Source of the DNA: Octopus vulgaris
Taxonomy: Eukaryota
Direction: 5' to 3'
Assembly (NCBI GenBank): GCA_951406725.2
Contig: OX597821.1
Span: 30,256,001-30,320,000, forward strand
DNA length: 64,000 nt
The first letter of the stretch is position 1. Each line of letters starts with the position of its first letter. The translations under genes and the position numbers were made by a program. Positions 5,400 to 64,000 of the stretch are shown here, piece after piece. The notes beneath the pieces are model-generated. The model saw only the letters and a program-made list of their open reading frames with translations, did not search any database and was not told the DNA's origin.

Positions 5400-5545
5400 G
5401 TTTATTTACTTGTGTTCCTTTCTGTTGATGAGCGTAGGCTCGAAACGTAAAAGACCTTTTCACCTTCCTGAGCGTCAAACTAGTACACATGCTTGTTGTT
5501 TATACACTTGTCTTCGTGTTTTGTTTTTTTTAAGTTTTAACTATA
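5400..5545 (+). mobile_element. Short pLTR-like hammerhead-bearing repeat
   Basis: Homologous to 59305-59495; ends in (TA)n. Confidence 0.65.
5418..5453 (+). ncRNA. Minimal type I hammerhead-like motif with atypical CUGUUGA core
   Basis: cttt-CTGTTGA-t-gagc(gtag)gctc-GAAAC-GTA-aaag. Confidence 0.55.
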
Positions 5546-5926
5546 TATATATATAAGAAATTAAAAAAAACAATACGCACACTTACATAGTTTTAATATA
5601 ATTTTTAATATATCGAGCGGTTTCGCTATCGCTGTTCATGATATTATGTTTTACTTATTTGAATATATATTTTTTTCTTAAGACGAAATTTGGTCCATGT
5701 TGTGTGTGATGAAATTCACGAGTGAATGACTTCACAAGGAGATAAATAAAGGGAGGTAATTGGTTGTCGTTATTATTGTTATCGTTGTGGGTAAGGGAGA
5801 TAACTGTTCAGCTTTCGGTAATGGCTGGGGATTATATATGTGTACAGAGACAAGTTTCAAAAACCTAGGGGATTTATGTACAGTGATGTAATCGTGAAAT
5901 GAAATATGTAAAAAGATAAAAGTTGG

Positions 5927-7190
5927 TTATGAGTGCATATTAAGACGTGTTTTGTATTTTTCAATGAAAAAAGTTTCTTTAGTTAAACGTTCTAGCTGAG
6001 AGTTTGCGTCTTTGCAGTGGTAGAAAGGGAAGACTGTGAAATTTGATTTGATATTACCCGCACATGTTTCTATATGTTAACTGAGAGGAATTTGACTATT
6101 TCGGGAAACGGATTTGCACCTTGTGCAGAGTCGTTCTCTTTCTCAAGGTCATACTCGTTTGTCCAATAGAGTGGTGTCCGCAACCCGAGCAGGTTATTAC
6201 ATAAATTAGGTTCTCAGAGGCACAGGCGAAACTAGTTTTAATTGTGAACCTCTGTCCTTGTTTGAAAAGGAAATCCTAGCCTTCAAGCAAGTTGGGGCAG
6301 GTTGCACAGTTTGGGCGTCCACATTTTTCAACCGTTGGTTTCATGATTGTTTTGTAAAGTTTCGCATTTGTTAGTAGTCTCTTTAGCGATTTGTCTTGTT
6401 TTTTGCATTTGATGAGTTTGTATGATTTCAGGATGTCGTTCATTTTAGGATCTCTAGTTAGTAAAGGAAGAGTTTGCACAATAGTGTTGAATGCCTCACT
6501 GTTTCTGGGGTTGTGTGTTGATATAAATAGTAATGTATTGGTTTGAAGTGTGGTGCTATGTTTTTTTGTTCTTAGTGTTTTTGTGTCTAATTGTTTGGCA
6601 CGTTTAATTTCCTCGTCGATAAGAGAGGGTGGATATTGTCTTTCAATAAATTTTGTTTTGAGGTCTTGAAGACGACGGTCCTGAGTTGTTCTATCAGACA
6701 CTATTGTGCAGATCCTTTTTGCTAAATTGAAAGGGATGTTTATTTTTATGTGTTTCGGGTGGCATGAGTTAAAAAGAAGATATTGTTCTGAATCAGTTGG
6801 TTTATAATAAATGTCAGTTAGGATTTCATTGTTAACTTTTTTATCATGATGTCTAAAAATGGAAGTTGTTCTTTGTTATATTCCATTGTGAATAGAATGT
6901 TACTATTTATGTAATTTAGTGTTGTTTTGAAATCCAAAAGTTAGTCGATGTTTTCCTTCTAGATGATAAAGCAGTCATCCAGGTATCGCTTCCAATTTTC
7001 TCTTATGTAGACGTAAAATGGGTAACCATATTTCTGAAGTGATACTTCATATAAGGTGAATTCAAAATAACCCATTATTAGGTTCACAAGCACAGGAGCT
7101 GCTTTCATCCACATCGCAATTCCGCATTTCTGACGATAGTATGGGTCATCAAATAGGAAATAATTGTTCTGAAGTATAAATTTAAGGATT
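5927..7190 (-). mobile_element. Penelope-like element (PLE) RT/GIY-YIG ORF remnant, 5' truncated and frameshifted
   Basis: RT motifs GIAM...ANL-like and WKRYLDDCF at about 6970-7130; CGRPNCATC linker (ORF 6276-6701); GIY-YIG-like LIYVITCSGCGHHSIGQT at about 6160-6215; stop codon at 5927. Confidence 0.9.
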
Positions 7191-7330
7191 TATGGTGTAC
7201 GATATCCAGGTGGAAAAAGAAATGATCTCACCCTACCTCCACGGACACTTGTCCTCAAGCCATGCCCCAGACATTGACACCCAAACGGCTCCCATAGTCA
7301 CCAGTACCCAACCCTCCACCTCTAACACTA

Positions 7331-9737: not shown

Positions 9738-10024
9738 CTCCTTGGTTGGAGTGGTGATTCTTGAAGTGGAAATAGTTGTAGTTGTCACGGTTGTGGTTCT
9801 GATTGCAGTGGTGGTGATTATGTTTTGGATTTTTGTTGTGATGGTGGTGACGGTGGTGCTTGCGGTTTTGGTTACAGTGGTGTATAGTGCTTGTACTAAC
9901 GGGAAGTACTAGAAATCAATGCAGTGATAATGTTGGCTGTGGTGATTATGGTATTATTATTGAGTGAGAGAGCAGCGCATGCCATGAAAGTGACATAGGG
10001 GTCGCACATACGAAACCCAGTATA

Positions 10025-10623
10025 CCTATTTCTTTACTACCCACAAGGGGCTAAACACAGAGGGGACAATCAAGGAGAGACAAACGGATTAAGCTGACTA
10101 CATCGACTCCAGTGCGTAACTGGTACTTAATTTATCGACCCCTAAAGGATGAAAGGCAACGTCGACCTCGGCGGAATTTGAACTCAGAAGGTAACGGCAC
10201 ACGAAATACCTATTTCTTTATTACCCACAAGGGGCTAAACATAGAGGGGACAAACAAAGACAGACATAGATATTTAGTCGATTACATCGACCCCAGTGCG
10301 TAACTGCTACTTAATTTATCGACACCGAAATGATGAAAGGCAAAGTCGACCTCGGCGGAATTTGAACTCAGAAGGTAACGGCACACGAAATACCTATTTC
10401 TTTATTACCCACAAGGGGCTAAACATAGAGGGGACAAACAAAGACAGACATGGATATTTAGTCGATTACATCGACCCCAGGGCGTAACTGGTATTTAACT
10501 TATCGACTCCGAAATGATGAAAGGCAAAGTCAACCTGGGCGGAATTTGAACTCACAACGTAACGACAGACGAAATACGGCTACGCATTTCGCCCGGCGTG
10601 CTAACGTTTCTGCCAGCTCGCCA
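10025..10623 (-). mobile_element. SINE family B with its 3' part tandemly triplicated (184-bp period)
   Basis: Three units starting at about 10025, 10209 and 10393; head at 10560-10623. Confidence 0.9.
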
Positions 10624-16710: not shown

Positions 16711-17152
16711 GGAATTTTCGGTTTGAACGGTAGTTTTTAACATAATTTCTAGGTAACTAAAAAAATTTAAACTTCGTATACTAGTAGAATGTGTTTATAA
16801 AACATCTTTTTCTCTTGGTTTTATTGAGAAAATTCTATAGTTTGTAAGATATCTGTTGTTGATTATCTTCAATTTCTGCAATTTCAACCAATCAGTGACG
16901 TCTATTGAGTTAAAAAGCATTCTGTGCCGTATGAATATGTCCCTCGTTTAAGAAACAGATTGGGTTTATTTACATTTGTGAAGAAAAAAGATACCCTTCC
17001 TCCACCCCTAACCCTAACGCTAACTAACCCTAACTCTAACCCTAACCTTAAAAGGGATTGAAATGCAATAGATCGATACTAGGATCATCATTATGGGTGA
17101 CAATTTCATATGACACCGCTAGAAAAAATTGCCGTTCAAACCGAAAAGATCC
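16711..17152 (+). mobile_element. Full Merlin-like MITE with 8-bp TSD cagtggtg and internal degenerate (CCCTAA)n
   Basis: TIRs ggaattttcggtttgaacggtagttttt / aaaaattgccgttcaaaccgaaaagatcc; TSD at 16703-16710 and 17153-17160. Confidence 0.85.
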
Positions 17153-23429: not shown

Positions 23430-23431
<2 letters not shown>

Positions 23432-23691
23432 CTTTATATAATTAGGGTTCAGCAAAAAAATTGCTTTACCACATACTGAACTTTTAGAAATAGCAGCCAT
23501 AAAAATTTAGCTATTTCTTCTACTGTATGAAGAGTCTCCCAGACAATGTATACTCATTGTTTTTGAGTATACATTGTCTGGGAGACTCTTCTTATAGTAG
23601 GGGAAATAGCTAAATTTTTTGTCTGCTATTTCTAAAAGTTCGGTATGTGGTAAAGCAATTTTTTTTTGCAGAACCCTAATTATATAAAGTA
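23430..23691. repeat. Inverted repeat with arms of about 127 bp and a 7-nt spacer, related to the terminus of the 24533 element
   Basis: Arms 23430-23556 and 23564-23691. Confidence 0.9.
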
Positions 23692-23920
23692 ATGTTTAAA
23701 TTAAACCGTAAATGGTCCTTCTACATACTGAACAACACTTGGTAAAATTATTAATTACTAATTAATTAATTAATTAATTTTGCCGTTTATTATTATTATT
23801 ACTATATATATGTATACACAGGAGTAAGCACATAAATGTGAAACAAGGTGGAAAAAAGAGTACTCAAATACCAGAGGTAGAGTAATATGCTTTATTTAAA
23901 ATCAGCAGAAATGTCACAAA

Positions 23921-23956
23921 AACTGTTACTCAGAGTTTCACGTTCCCGTTCGTTGG
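23921..23956 (-). ncRNA. Hammerhead motif, 5' truncated and mutated
   Basis: Minus strand: CCAACGA-acg(ggaa)cgt-GAAACTCTGAGTA-acagtt. Confidence 0.55.
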
Positions 23957-24048
23957 GCCAACTCTCTCACCTACATATACATATATATATACATATGCAT
24001 ATACAGGGGTTGGACTAAATAATGGAAACCCCTTCAAATTTCAAAGGA

Positions 24049-24090
24049 AACTGTCCGACGAACAGGGACGTGAAACTCTAAGTAACAGTT
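24049..24090 (+). ncRNA. Type I hammerhead motif, inverted partner of 23921-23956
   Basis: aactgt-CCGACGA-acagggacgt-GAAACTCTAAGTA-acagtt; 6-bp stem I. Confidence 0.65.
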
Positions 24091-24121
24091 GTTGTGCTTT
24101 TTCTGCTGCTTTTAAATAAAG

Positions 24122-24159
<38 letters not shown>

Positions 24160-24480: not shown

Positions 24481-24713
24481 ATACATGCACATACATGTAT
24501 ATATATGTATGTATATATATATATATATATATAGTAAAGTAAATAAGATGGCTAGCAGCAGGCTGTTTCGCCTCATACCGAAGGAATTAGAAATGGCAGT
24601 CAAAGACCGTTATTTCCATTTTCTATAAGTGGAGATTCCAAAAACGAAGGCCCATGGGGCTCACATACACAAAACCGGAGAAGCAAATAGACGAAAGCAG
24701 TCACTTACCGTTA

Positions 24714-24776
24714 ATAACGAACACGTGTTTCTGGATCACAAACATAGAGTAGTTTGAATTCCGTCATCGGCGCTAT
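24714..24776 (-). ncRNA. Type I hammerhead ribozyme
   Basis: Minus strand: atagcg-CCGATGA-cggaattcaaac(tactctat)gtttgtgatcca-GAAACACGTGTT-cgttat; palindromic stem III. Confidence 0.75.
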
Positions 24777-25637
24777 ATTCGATAGCTTTACCAAATGCCA
24801 CTGGCCCTCACTTCCGACCCAGCGACATCAGATAGTGGGGGGAAGTGTGCAGATGTTAAAACTAGGTAACGACTGGGAACGTAAATTTTCCCTCCAAAAT
24901 TCTGCCATGCGCGCCTTCTGGGTAATCGTAATGGAATGAGGAATCCACATGGTAATACAATAAAAATGGTAAATAATTCACCTGTGATTTTTCATGTAAC
25001 CAACAATTATTTACCGGTAAATTTCGGTATGTAAATACGACAAATTTATTGTCAGGACCTTTGTAAGGTTCAGTATATAGTAAAGTAAATAAGATGGCTA
25101 GCAGCAGGCTGTTTCGCCTCATACCGAAGGAATTAGAAATGGCAGTCAAAGACCGTTATTTCCATTTTCTATAAGTGGAGATTCCAAAAACATTTTGTGT
25201 ATGTGAGCCCCATGGGCCTTCGTTTTGTGGAATCTCCACTTATAGAAAATGTAAATAACGGTATTTGACTGCCATTTCTAATTCCTTCGGTATGAGGCGA
25301 AACAGCCTGCTGCTAGCCATCTTATTTACTTTACTATATACTGAACCTTACAAATGTCCTGACAATAAATTTGTCGTATTTACATACCGAAATTTACCGG
25401 TAAATAATTGTTGGTTACATGAAAAACCACAGGTGAATTATTTACCATTTTTATTGTATTACCATGTGGATTCCTCATTCCATTACGATTACCCAGAAGG
25501 CGCGCATGGCAGAATTTTGGAGGGAAAATTTACGTTCCCAGTCGTTACTTAGTTTTAACATCTGCACACTTCCCCCCACTATCTGATGTCGCTGGATCGG
25601 AAGTGAGGGCCAGTGGCATTTGGTAAAGCTATCGAAT

Positions 25638-25700
25638 AAAGCGCCGATGACGGAATTCAAATTACTCTATGTTTGTGATCCAGAAACACGTGTTCGTTAT
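25638..25700 (+). ncRNA. Type I hammerhead ribozyme, inverted copy
   Basis: aaagcg-CCGATGA-...-GAAACACGTGTT-cgttat. Confidence 0.75.
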
Positions 25701-25784
25701 TAACGGTAAGTGACTGCTTTCGTCTATTTGCTTCTCCGGTTTTGTGTATGTGAGCCCCATGGGCCTTCGTTTTTGGAATCTCCA

Positions 25785-25835
<51 letters not shown>

Positions 25836-26573
25836 TATATATATATAAATATATATGAAAGAGAAGAATACAGTGTACATCCAAACACATAAGCGATACC
25901 CAGGAAATAGGATATCTGACTGACTAGAAAGAGTAGTTAAATTCCAAGCCACTAATTGTTGTAATTCCGAAAGTGATTGAAAAATATAAACTTTTACCTT
26001 AATTATCCTAGATCCTGCCAGGTTTCTGCAGACTTAAATACAGAATGAAATAAAATAATTTCAATCTATATCTGGCGCTCCTTCCTCAGTAGGTTGCCAG
26101 GACTGAAGACATAGATACGGAGCGATAAATGATCAGCCACGTGCCTATATGCTTTAAGTTTTCGAATGAGCGAAGATGTTGTTGAAATCCAACCTGAATT
26201 CCTAAAATTTGAAGGTAATAAATGTGAAGGTAAGAAAACACCTACAATAATCAGCATTTCTTGGAACTGCAAAATTGTCTCCTTAGTCTGCTGGCTGTGG
26301 ACTTCTGACACTTTCCATCATTACTTGCAATATAAACTGCGAATTTTTAATAGAAAAATAATTATAATAATACTTTCTGCTAAAGGTATATTGCCTAAAT
26401 TTTTGGGGAGGGGTTAAGTCGATCATATTGACCTCAGTGTTTCACTGGTAATTAATTTATCGACTCCTAAAGGATGATCATTGTCTTTGCAAAGTAGAGT
26501 GGAAAAAAAATTTGTTGAGGATTAAAAAGTTATGGGGTATGTGTAAAACAAATTGGTATAATGATATATATAT

Positions 26574-31009: not shown

Positions 31010-31620
31010 GAAATAAAATTTCCGGTAGTTTGAAATAAGGTAAAGGATGACTCGTCCGAGAATATAACATTCTTCCGCTGCTCTATGGACCAATTCTGTA
31101 GGTTTTTACTCCACTCTAAACGCTATGCACGTTTGTTTGTGAAAGTAGTGATTTTCTGATTGCAGCCCTCCCGTGAAATTCAGATTTGTGCAGATGCTGG
31201 CGAACTTTTGTGATCCTTTCTAACAGATGGCATAAGAGTCCGTTGGTCCCTATCTGAAAGTTTTGGTTTTGTTCCGGAGCTTTGTTTTGACGAGTTTTTT
31301 CCCTCTTTCTTAAAGGCTGTCATTACTTTCGAGACAGTACTTCTTGATAGACCAAACATTTCGGTTATCGTTACGCTAGCGACTGCCATACAGGCACCAA
31401 CAATTTGAGCTCTTTGAAATTCCAATAAATTTGTCATTTTAATGAATTTTAATTACCTTTTTCTAATGATATCTGAAAAGAAAGAGCAATTTTAGCAAAA
31501 TTAAGCAACAGTAATAATAAATAAAAAATAAAATCAACATAGTTTTGATGGTTTTATAGATATTTCAAAATTATGATGATATGATGCTAGCTTTTTCCAT
31601 TATATTGCCCAGCCCCTTAT
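31010..31620 (-). mobile_element. Tc1-like transposon 5' part: TIR plus HTH domain of the transposase
   Basis: ORF 31180-31437 MTNLLEFQRAQIVGACMAVASVT...SRSTVSKV...GTKPKLSDRDQRTL; TIR at about 31592-31620 matches an isolated TIR at 24002-24030. Confidence 0.85.
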
Positions 31621-38754: not shown

Positions 38755-38968
38755 TACTAAGTAATTAAGGGTTTAGCAACGATTTGCCTCACCACACACC
38801 GAATTTAGAAATAGCAGTCAAAGAGTTATAGCTATTCCTTTCTACTAAAGGGAGATCTCAGTAAAACCACAGCACTTGAAAGGCAAACACAGACAGGCAA
38901 GAGAGAAAGAAAATGACGACAATCGATCATACAATAAAAAGTCACCTACGGACGTACGTTTCGAAATC
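38755..38968 (-). mobile_element. Truncated retrozyme/pLTR-like element with the 3' half of a hammerhead
   Basis: Terminal motif shared with 23430 and 24533; minus-strand GAAAC-GTAC-GTC at 38951-38962; (TA)-type repeats on both sides. Confidence 0.6.
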
Positions 38969-38988
38969 GTATATATATATCTATATTT

Positions 38989-55861: not shown

Positions 55862-56310
55862 TCTATTTCTTTACTACCCACAAGGGGCTAAACACAGAGG
55901 GGACAAACAAGGAGAGACAAACGTATTAAGTCGATTACATCGACTCCAGTGCGTAACTGGTACTTAATTTATCGACCTCGAAAGGACGAAAGGCAAAGTC
56001 GACCTCGGCGGAATTTGAACTCAGAACGTAACGGCAGACGCAATACTCCTACGCATTTCGTCCGGCATGCTAACGTTTCTTATTTCTTTATTGCCCACAA
56101 GGGGCTAAACATAGAGGGGGACAAAAAAAAGACAGACAAAGGGATTAAGTCGATTACATCGACCCCAGTGCGTAACTGGTATTTAATTTATCGACCCCGA
56201 AAGGATGAAGGGCAAAGTCGACCTCGGCGGAATTTGAACCCAGAACGTAACGGCAGACGAAATAAGACTACGCATTTCGCCCGGCGTGCTAACGTTTCTG
56301 CCAGCTCGCT
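55862..56310 (-). mobile_element. SINE family B, tandem dimer
   Basis: Two consecutive copies of about 217 bp. Confidence 0.9.
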
Positions 56311-58110: not shown

Positions 58111-58247
58111 TATTAGAGAGTTATCCACTATGTGGATAAATCTAGTGCTAAAAATAGCTCCGAAGCAACCACAGAAGATCCGTTTCCAACTAGAACCAAC
58201 ACACATTTAACTGAAGGAAAGTGAAATACAACGAATAAAATAGATTG

Positions 58248-58323
58248 ACTCTATACAATTGTTTCATTACTAATGCAATATGTAGTTTTACTTACACTTG
58301 CATCCATAAATCTTCGGTAGAGT
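58248..58323 (-). ncRNA. Type I hammerhead, array copy 1
   Basis: Minus strand: actcta-CCGAAGA-(long stem II, atgcaa/ttgcat)-GAAAC-AATT-GTA-tagagt. Confidence 0.75.
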
Positions 58324-58702
58324 TCGTCAGAAATGCAATTAATTAGATCGATTCGAGCGTCAAAAACACGAGCGGTCCAACCAATTACATTTTTAGTTAC
58401 GTCTCAAATTCCGCGCCAAAAGCATGCCTAGACTCCATTGGAAACGTATGCCGCATCAAATAAAATATTAACTGCCGCATGGTTAAATTTATAAAATTAT
58501 AAATGAGGGTGAAAAATCGATATTAATTTAATAATACCATTAATTTAACACCAAGTGGCTTAGCACAAACAACTACGAGAAAATACAAATTTATACATTA
58601 GTGCTAAAAATAGCTCCGAAGCAACCACAGAAGATCCGTTTCCAACTAGAACCAACACACATTTAACTGAAGGAAAGTGAAATACAACGAATAAATAGAT
58701 TG

Positions 58703-58778
58703 ACTCTATACAATTGTTTCATTACTAATGCAATATGTAGTTTTACTTACACTTGCATCCATAAATCTTCGGTAGAGT
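58703..58778 (-). ncRNA. Type I hammerhead, array copy 2
   Basis: Identical motif 455 nt away. Confidence 0.75.
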
Positions 58779-59008
58779 TTGTCAGAAATGCAATTAATTA
58801 GATCGATTCGAGCGTCAAAAACACGAGCGGTCCAACCAATTACATTTTTAGTTATGTCTCAAATTCCGCGCCAAAAGCATGCATAGACTCCATTGGAAAC
58901 GTATGCCGCATCAAATAAAATATTAACTGCCGCATGGTTAAATTTATAAAATTATAAATGAGGGTGAAAAATCGATATTAATTTAATAATACCATTAATT
59001 TAACACCA

Positions 59009-59091
<83 letters not shown>

Positions 59092-62822: not shown

Positions 62823-64000
62823 ATTCTTTTTTATTGGCCACAAGGGCTGACACGCATGATTACATAAAGGGACAAGACAGGACGAAAGGTTACAAAGGGT
62901 TTTGTCCGTTTGTTAAAAAAATCCGTGTAAAAAACTTTAAAGCAATGATTATTAAAAACAATGAAAAACTCCCAAAAGGGGAGACGTCTCGAAATGTTCC
63001 CGGTGGAAAAAACCCTACAAAAGCCAACGGGAGCCTGGTCAAAAAAAGGGGGTGTAGAGAGTCCCCTTTCTTCTCCCTTTACATTACCTTTTTCTTTGAA
63101 ATCACAGGCGAAACCTGAGAACTGGTCCATTTATACAGGCCAGTCTCGCACAATTCACCCACCTTTCATAAAACTTGCTATCGGACAGCACTTTCCTCTC
63201 TAACCTCATCTTCCTTTTCAAGTGAAACTTGAAAAAGTTGATGAGGCCTTGACCAAAGAGGAAAGTGTCTGACTTTAGCCCTTTCAAACGAGTCCACCAC
63301 ACGACTTCTTTCGCCACAGCCACAAGGCACAAGAAAACGGCCTCGCCCTCCTTGTTAAAGGAGGTCGGCGGGGCAATCTTCACTATGGATTCGGCCGATA
63401 GTCGGATCCGTCCTACACGTGACAGTAGCTGTTCGACATAAACCCATATTTCAGCAATACTCGGGCACTGGACGAGTGCGTGCAGAACGGTTTCGTCGTC
63501 CTGGCAACACCTCGGGCAGGCCCGGCTGACGGCACTTCCGTGCCGGTAGAGTTTATCTCGAACAGGCAGAGCCCCTCGGTAGCACTGCCAGGCGAGAGAC
63601 CTCTGGAAATTATCCATCGGCCCCGGCCCGAAAGTCCTCCCGAACAGACCGCACAGTTCGTCATCTTCAACGCCTAGAGTTTCCCCGAGAACGTCGTCGC
63701 ATTTTCCTCCACTAACCCTCTATAGAACGCTAGAGTGGAGCTGTAACCGACCGCATTGCCCGCCTGGCGGAGGGCGGAGAGGGCTTGACGGCACTCGAGG
63801 TGCCAAGCGCCCTTTCTCGGTCTACGTTTGATCCAGGTCTGCAGCTCCGTCAAAGAGACGAGCTGCGGAAAATCGCGTCTGACAAAAGACGACCACACCT
63901 GTTCACCGTCTAGGAAGCGCTTGAGATGCCGCAGCCTGAGCGCATGTCTGCGCAACAGCAACCACGGCATTCCAAGACCTCCGTTCAGCGGTCGTTGACA
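62823..64000 (-). mobile_element. Tx1/L1-clade LINE: ORF2 C-terminus (zf-RVT) and 3' UTR, frameshifted, continuing beyond the window
   Basis: GGLGMP...; CPRCCQDDETVLHALVQC zinc knuckle (ORFs 63102-63617 and 63674-63970). Confidence 0.9.

Follow-up and report, generated by a model that had tools for sequence, protein, structure and literature searches.

Insertions of Penelope-like elements (PLEs) show the layout described in parts of PMC8557442 and PMC3846280 as partial tandem copies with an adjacent inverted and truncated copy, a tail of 30–40 bp that is frequently found at one end only, and a bias towards (TA)n; non-autonomous PLE derivatives are described in them as well. Sections of PMC11167929 show that the PLE tail is delimited by a pair of internal sites at which the RT starts, and that both target strands are cleaved and extended; a dimer is predicted, and the PLE hammerhead requires protein and is dispensable for insertion in vitro. 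Pairs of hammerheads on opposite strands appear in part of PMC4209133, where more-than-unit reverse transcription on circles is proposed, and inverted pLTRs with short extensions are treated as routine in passages of PMC8969392. For retrozymes, sections of PMC7229834 report circles in coral, mussel and axolotl and name PLEs as likely mobilisers, and a recent preprint (bioRxiv 10.64898/2026.07.22.740005) argues in its main text, by phylogeny, that retrozymes are derived from pLTRs, and reports cleavage in one of nine predicted retrozyme dimers. Recently active Penelope families from Octopus vulgaris are described in PMC13282606, in sections that do not mention hammerheads; the repeat library of that work may already contain the family analyzed here. 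A literature search that covered few subscription papers retrieved nothing on cephalopod retrozymes.

We analyzed a stretch of 64,000 nt from O. vulgaris (contig OX597821.1; hereafter the window) containing, at positions 24533..25790, a foldback composed of units of a dispersed 546-bp family. We interpret this foldback, with a probability of about 0.8, as the product of a single retrotransposition event of a non-autonomous, hammerhead-bearing non-LTR retrozyme of 546 nt, mobilised in trans by a PLE. As in animal non-LTR retrozymes, in so far as parts of PMC7229834 and bioRxiv 10.64898/2026.07.22.740005 characterize them, the family has tandem, non-coding units that each bear a single predicted type I hammerhead, a GC content under 45%, dispersed copies from monomers to multimers and co-occurring PLEs; its unit is within the 51–972 bp range given in the preprint and longer than the typical ~300 bp. 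In contrast to these retrozymes, the 546-bp family is dominated by head-to-head insertions with two fixed ends, and its self-cleavage and circular RNA are putative; the terms "tail" and "head-to-head" are not mentioned in the main text of the preprint.

These insertions resemble those of EN+ PLEs, as depicted in sections of PMC8557442 (fig. 2), PMC3846280 and PMC11167929, in having partial tandems, an adjacent inverted copy, a one-sided extension, microsatellite targets without a readable TSD and, in a hammerhead of the PLE type, a base bulging out behind A9. They differ in the absence of an ORF and in a tail of 118–130 nt, versus the published 30–40 nt; additionally, short stretches of TA microhomology are shared between their ends and the target, in contrast to PAc, which initiates in vitro without homology (PMC11167929, in part). 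In Schistosoma PLEs, part of PMC4209133 reports minimal hammerhead pairs on opposite strands separated by 100–700 bp, whereas in our foldback they are ~860 bp apart and reside in arms that exceed one unit, the tandem element being non-coding. MRC1 and other non-autonomous Chlamys PLEs from Chlamydomonas (PMC8557442, in part) share with the 546-bp family their non-autonomous nature, a pLTR-like redundancy and a multicopy head-to-tail arrangement, but their 3′ end is generally similar to that of the autonomous partner, whereas for the 546-bp family the sampled PLEs matched only in short AT-rich motifs at the ends. The single locus at 24533..25790 matters little in itself, and the value is carried by family-level rules: through the anatomy of its insertions (tail, inversion and target), the family connects the enzymes of PLEs with non-LTR retrozymes, a tie that the main text of the recent preprint (bioRxiv 10.64898/2026.07.22.740005) made by phylogeny, and it bears on two open points of PLE biology, the priming of the second strand and whether or not the template is circular.

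Structure of the foldback and its hammerhead motifs

Unit positions (1–546) were counted in the sense of the hammerhead. A first-pass annotation of the window had proposed a foldback of about 1.25 kb made of phase-shifted 546-bp units and bordered by (TA)n at both ends, and this architecture was borne out by our analysis: the arms lie head to head with a 546-bp period, comprise 1.22 (left) and 1.09 (right) units, and their longest inverted pairing (24624–25190 with 25224–25790) spans 567 nt with 98% identity and a 33-nt spacer. The flanking target microsatellites occupy 24498..24533 and 25787..25856, and the final TATATA of the left one (24528–24533) is common to the flank and to the element template. 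The left arm (24534..25191, minus strand; 664 nt if counted from 24528 to include the shared TATATA) has its 3′ end at one of the two standard sites of the family, E1 (24534), and is 5′-truncated at unit position 435 (25191). Its terminal redundancy is of 118 nt, with 25074..25191 (minus strand) being 100% identical to 24528–24645, and the arm includes an internal copy of the segment, or tail, from E1 to the second standard site, E2 (24953..25079, minus strand; unit 1 to ~125); E2 (~24953–24957) is inside the left arm and is not used as an end in this foldback.

A single untemplated A (25192) constitutes the head-to-head junction between both 5′-truncated arms. The right arm (25193..25790, plus strand; 598 nt) runs from unit position 406 round to 452–456, a non-standard outer end at which the template TATA merges into the (TA)n flank, and has a redundancy of 52 nt (25193–25244 versus 25740–25790, 98% identity). 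In unit coordinates, the inner ends are then 435 and 406 and the outer ends 546(+6) and 452–456; neither of the arms corresponds to an uninterrupted part of the other, since one extends from 435 via a full unit to 546 and the other from 406 to 456, and the outer end of the right arm falls ~20 nt from the inner end of the left arm, with an overlap of 22 bp. The TSD is unreadable within the (TA)n tracts. The few substitutions between the arms noted in the first pass amount to eight, which together with one 1-nt insertion make nine differences; the eight are near-private, six being derived on the right arm and two on the left, and 17 non-majority bases are common to both arms.

Each arm contains one outward-pointing hammerhead motif, at exactly the positions where the first-pass annotation had placed them: a type I motif of the PLE type at 24714..24776 (minus strand), with a predicted cut between 24720 and 24719, and a second one at 25638..25700 (plus strand), with a predicted cut between 25694 and 25695. 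The two are on opposite strands and ~860 bp apart. The motif consists of a 6-bp stem I, a CCGAUGA core, a long stem II and a palindromic stem III, and a private T>A change at 25639 disrupts one pair of stem I in the right arm. The core is atypical, with U4C, an extra A ahead of GAAA and a GUU site, which is a permitted but weaker site for hammerhead cleavage. A base bulging out after A9, a long stem II and a stem III that is palindromic are also found in the PLE-type hammerheads presented in part of PMC4209133.

In an alignment of 23 copies of the family, the core reads CCGAUGA in 14 and CUGAUGA in nine, and the core and stems I–III are present in all of them; the three stems were recovered by unconstrained RNAalifold, and 99.3% of the cells pair, versus 27–48% with slid partners, for a structure that was derived from these same 23 sequences. 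Variation is concentrated outside of the core (0/10 variable columns, versus 11/16 in loop II), and covariation is limited to a single two-sided change, a single event at a CpG. Isolated 91-mers containing the motifs did not fold better than shuffled sequences (z of 0.58 and −0.12). Using gathering and E-value thresholds, Rfam did not retrieve any hammerhead at 24533..25790, but it also missed the canonical hammerhead of a sister family with a 586-bp unit, and its blank result therefore says little. Our designation of these motifs as putative hammerheads is based on the conserved core letters and on the consensus fold of the family. As is typical of retrozyme sequences, a predicted type I hammerhead occurs in every unit of the 23 aligned copies; two hammerheads in tandem, another retrozyme trait, are found in other loci of the family (e.g., L006, L022, L027 and L028), whereas the foldback at 24533..25790 has one per arm, on opposite strands. 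No unit could therefore be released by double cleavage from this copy, which is probably a dead end considering this arrangement and its non-standard end.

A donor-like GTAAGT motif lies ~11 nt past the hammerhead (25706–25711, plus strand; unit 372–377) and is invariant in the 23 aligned copies. PLEs retain an intron in this region, and this motif could possibly be an intron donor. The foldback would form a hairpin of 567 bp in a read-through transcript, and the long dsRNA suggested in the first-pass annotation as a possible ADAR or small-RNA substrate would follow from the sequence. No host exon was found when 150 of the 162 filtered ORFs of the window were compared to Pfam, a search that short exons would escape, and an intronic location is conceivable.

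Fixed ends and targets of the 546-bp family

The genome searched comprises 2.8 Gb in 227 contigs. A search with the unit retrieved 1,222 candidates, with 92–97% identity for full-length matches among the 40 that were scored; an exact 20-mer produced 480 genome matches and the hammerhead half 182, with 0 for the controls. We classified 89 distinct loci by script. The first set (49 loci) combined the 32 best unit matches, which are biased towards full units, with 22 loci found via an exact 30-mer, five being shared, and the second set consisted of 40 new loci from the first 100 listed matches of the 20-mer, and is the least biased sample.

Foldbacks were the commonest form of the family (53 of the 89 loci; 34/49 and 19/40 in the two sets). 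The inner ends of the foldbacks were variable, and the outer ends clustered at two fixed sites separated by ~123 nt, E1, at unit 546, where the template continues with TATATA, and E2, at unit 118–130. All 34 foldbacks with two standard ends combined one E1 with one E2 (21/21 and 13/13), a pattern with a chance of ~1 in 10^10 assuming independent ends at even odds, and neither E1+E1 nor E2+E2 occurred in any of the 53 foldbacks; the remaining 19 had one standard and one non-standard end. We found no strict one-of-each rule for the ends in the literature searched. In 84 of the 89 loci (48/49 and 36/40), one or both flanks were TA-rich. Arms of more than one unit were found in 7/22 and 15/40 loci of the less biased sets, which disposes of the possibility, singled out in the first-pass annotation as fatal to its reading, that no other copy exceeds one unit (546 nt); both arms exceeded it in five of the 89 loci, and the longest arm reached 4.56 units. 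Loci L061, L062 and L175 contain arrays of 2–4.6 units with tandem hammerheads and are candidate source loci for circular RNA.

Among 13 non-standard ends inspected, nine directly adjoin (TA)n and, of these, six stop at a template TA, TAT or TATA as judged by eye, compared to 17% of positions by chance. The end at 452–456 of our foldback is also used in L020, whose other arm ends at 359; this end might stem from alternative, microhomology-guided priming, from a deletion that subsequently reached into the (TA)n, or from twin priming. The foldback at 24533..25790 is then one ordinary insertion of a common non-coding element, not a rare object, and such a structure, the commonest insertion form of the family, was already described for PLEs. 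The family has a short, non-coding, dispersed tandem unit and has the sequence features of a non-LTR retrozyme. We rejected a MITE or DNA foldback transposon because the outer ends are different sites, the arms vary in length and 36 of the 89 copies were not classed as foldbacks. We also rejected an autonomous PLE: the longest ORF in the unit is of 97 aa, the unit ORFs have no Pfam match, and no PLE ORF was contiguous with any copy examined.

The family displays 5′ truncation, partial tandems and adjacent inverted copies, as well as two fixed 3′ ends with a one-sided extension (34/34) and a microsatellite or AT-rich target (84/89 loci), all of which are hallmarks of PLE insertions. At the level of anatomy, the E1+E2 pairing in 34/34 is the PLE signature of an inverted copy plus tail; together with the (TA)n targets and the same pattern in autonomous PLEs, it strongly supports PLE-style priming from both sides, and it is likely that a non-autonomous RNA was inserted from two ends in the manner of a PLE. 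The genome harbors at least four families of autonomous PLEs with RT and GIY-YIG, some with open frames of 750–780 aa. Their foldbacks are head to head, of 0.8–2.9 kb, inserted in (TA)n and of similar age to the 546-bp family (arms 97.6–100% alike), with tails of roughly 30–50 nt, much shorter than the 118–130 nt of the 546-bp family; in four of the five examined there was one tailed and one untailed end, the fifth being unreadable. One copy of the 546-bp family sits in (TA)n immediately after a PLE 3′ end. Comparison of the unit with a non-exhaustive sample of 50 PLE loci (30 from a linker-protein search and 20 from a GIY-YIG search) yielded only matches of 18–21 bp, at chance level; when aligned locally to the 3′ UTRs of two PLEs, the unit obtained lower scores than shuffled sequences, and the likeness of the ends of one PLE family to E1 and E2 is confined to short AT-rich motifs.

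Origin of the two arms and nature of the template

We examined 30 sites that split the 546-bp family into subfamilies. Unit pairs from the same locus were discordant in only 8 of 1,539 comparisons (3/1,075 in the 49 loci and 5/464 in the 40 loci), versus 42% and 37%, respectively, between loci, indicating that each insertion started out with identical arms and units and that new variants reach all the units at once. The divergence between arms versus that to the nearest other locus did not discriminate, because members of a subfamily are as close to each other as the arms. These uniform haplotypes, in arrays of up to 4.6 units, would be most simply explained by a circle, although an RT jumping from one identical monomer to another, or a source array that is long and uniform, is a possible fit too; a circular or re-used monomer template appears favoured, and we lean slightly towards the circular one. 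The unit is predicted to be highly folded in the sense orientation (z of −4.96 linear and −5.2 circular, compared to shuffled sequences) and less so in antisense (−3.1), with values of −4.6 versus −1.4 for the sister family and of −0.1 to −1.5 for five flank controls. The 5′ ends did not pile up at the predicted cut site (6 of 83 within 10 nt, with 3.2 expected), indicating that cut linear monomers copied once were not the main template. The first-pass annotation had offered reverse transcription of a circular RNA and PLE-style priming from both sides as alternatives: the PLE component is upheld by the 34/34 E1+E2 foldbacks and the circle receives indirect support, but the opposition between them does not hold, since PLE-type ends and one-haplotype arrays suggest that both probably act together.

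We envisage that source arrays of at least two units would be transcribed to generate a unit-length, highly folded RNA, most likely a circle cut by the hammerhead. The flanks suggest that the endonuclease of a Penelope-like RT/GIY-YIG enzyme, acting in trans, would cut both strands of a (TA)n tract, and the genomic pattern shows both DNA 3′ ends priming cDNA at internal sites of the same unit, usually one at E1 and one at E2, ~123 nt apart. As the pattern also shows, the cDNAs extend variably, often beyond the hammerhead and beyond one unit; the two truncated products would be end-joined head to head. At 24533..25790, one arm would have initiated at E1 and extended for 664 nt, the other one, ending at the TATA in 452–456, would be of 598 nt, and both would have been identical at insertion and drifted by ~1.5% afterwards.

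Other origins are conceivable and differ in the template or in the source of the second arm. Two-ended PLE priming could have occurred on a linear, uncleaved multimer, or with an RT jumping between identical monomers, in which case there would be no circle and the hammerhead would be vestigial or dispensable. The atypical core, with U4C in 14 of the 23 copies, agrees with this explanation, as does the finding, in a section of PMC11167929, that the predominant PLE substrate in vitro is RNA without processing, and the absence of a 5′-end pile-up suits uncleaved multimers as well as circles. However, several subfamilies each contain arrays with a single haplotype in all the units, a state that requires a single-unit bottleneck in each round; additionally, none of the core letters varies, in contrast to the free variation of loop II, and the sister family keeps a canonical hammerhead together with the same anatomy, and we regard this origin as possible but doubtful. 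Twin priming of the L1 type, in which a second primer anneals just inside the reach of the first cDNA on a transcript of at least 2.3 units, could account for the single 452–456 end, given the 22-bp overlap of this end with the inner end of the left arm and an exact match at L104 (318/318). Yet 34 of the 53 foldbacks have E1 and E2 as their fixed outer ends, irrespective of where the inner ends fall, L020 combines the 452–456 end with another arm ending at 359, there is no poly(A) tail and the targets are (TA)n, and we consider this origin improbable.

Even less probable is that the mirror arm is a copy of the first one, made by snap-back self-priming or by a later inverted duplication of the DNA. 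Self-priming on an antisense template was proposed for Penelope in part of PMC3846280, and many foldback junctions show overlaps of a few bases; nevertheless, a plain copy does not predict the strict alternation of E1 and E2, and copying is also contradicted by the arms not being contiguous pieces of each other and by short foldbacks such as L108, in which each arm holds unit positions that are absent from the other. Palindromes are a familiar artefact of long-read data, and the foldback could in principle derive from the assembly of chimeric fold-back reads; of the public contigs covering 25130–25735 (4/24 runs), none listed spans 25192, but contigs drop rare variants, and this result speaks neither for nor against the junction. 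Nonetheless, an artefact is highly improbable, because the arms show nine differences, with six of the eight substitutions derived on the right arm and two on the left, differ in phase, and have as outer ends one standard site of the family and one that also serves another locus, and because the same layout recurs in 53 of the 89 loci and in unrelated PLE families.

In returning to insertion by a PLE acting in trans, it is tempting to propose a broader scenario, to which we assign somewhat less than even odds: that Neptune-like PLEs are parasitised by circular RNAs of the 546-bp family and of its sister families. Each two-ended insertion would then entail the obligate use of both RT start sites, one per DNA strand (34/34), as by an asymmetric RT/endonuclease dimer on one RNA, and all arms and units would come from one unit-length template by rolling-circle reverse transcription; neither rule was encountered in the literature searched. 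If so, the unusually long tail of ~120 nt would be a convenient substrate for the study of PLE second-strand synthesis, and long hairpins of near-perfect pairing would number in the hundreds in the genome and could supply ADAR or small-RNA pathways.

Related and neighbouring elements

The 586-bp sister family, with a canonical hammerhead core and 2,396 search candidates, shows the same anatomy as the 546-bp family, with foldbacks having two fixed ends ~103–110 nt apart, although in L083 the first end is seemingly on both arms. The window contains a 5′-truncated copy of this family (38757–38970, minus strand). A third related family is represented by a small foldback (23430–23800), located in (TA)n and 750 bp from 24533..25790; it shows a self-inverted match of 285 nt (88% identity), and inspection by eye places the end of one arm at an E1-like site, with the other arm continuing for ~100 nt more.

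A young PLE family (L051–L057 and L060) possesses foldbacks of 1.7–2.9 kb with 99.6–99.9% identity and is likely to be still active; it also has a separate upstream open frame of 367–380 codons with no Pfam match. One of its members, L055, contains a hammerhead-like motif with a U3-A8 core, and another with an A3-U8 core appears in L058, both identified by eye. L058 is a close relative of a decayed PLE located in the window at ~5560–7200 (minus strand), which preserves remains of the RT, the CxxC linker and the GIY-YIG. Beside this remnant, at ~5415–5470 (plus strand), a different short repeat contains a compact hammerhead-like motif (U3 variant).

Two Pfam matches were obtained among the 150 window ORFs, which we read as transposon remains: a zf-RVT remnant of a non-LTR element (63102–63719, minus strand) and a weak HTH frame (31180–31452, minus strand), which presumably corresponds to the start of a Tc1 transposase. 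The window also includes a 455-bp tandem duplication (58143–59009; 1.9 copies, 99% identity) that ends in (TA)n, a short MITE-like element (23885–24126) with inverted ends of 72 nt at 86% identity around a (TA)n/(GA)n core, tandem repeat copies at 10022–10577 (184 bp, three copies) and 55864–56299 (219 bp, two copies) that we take to be SINE-like, and short interstitial, telomere-like (CTAACC)n tracts at 2401–2444 and 17006–17051.
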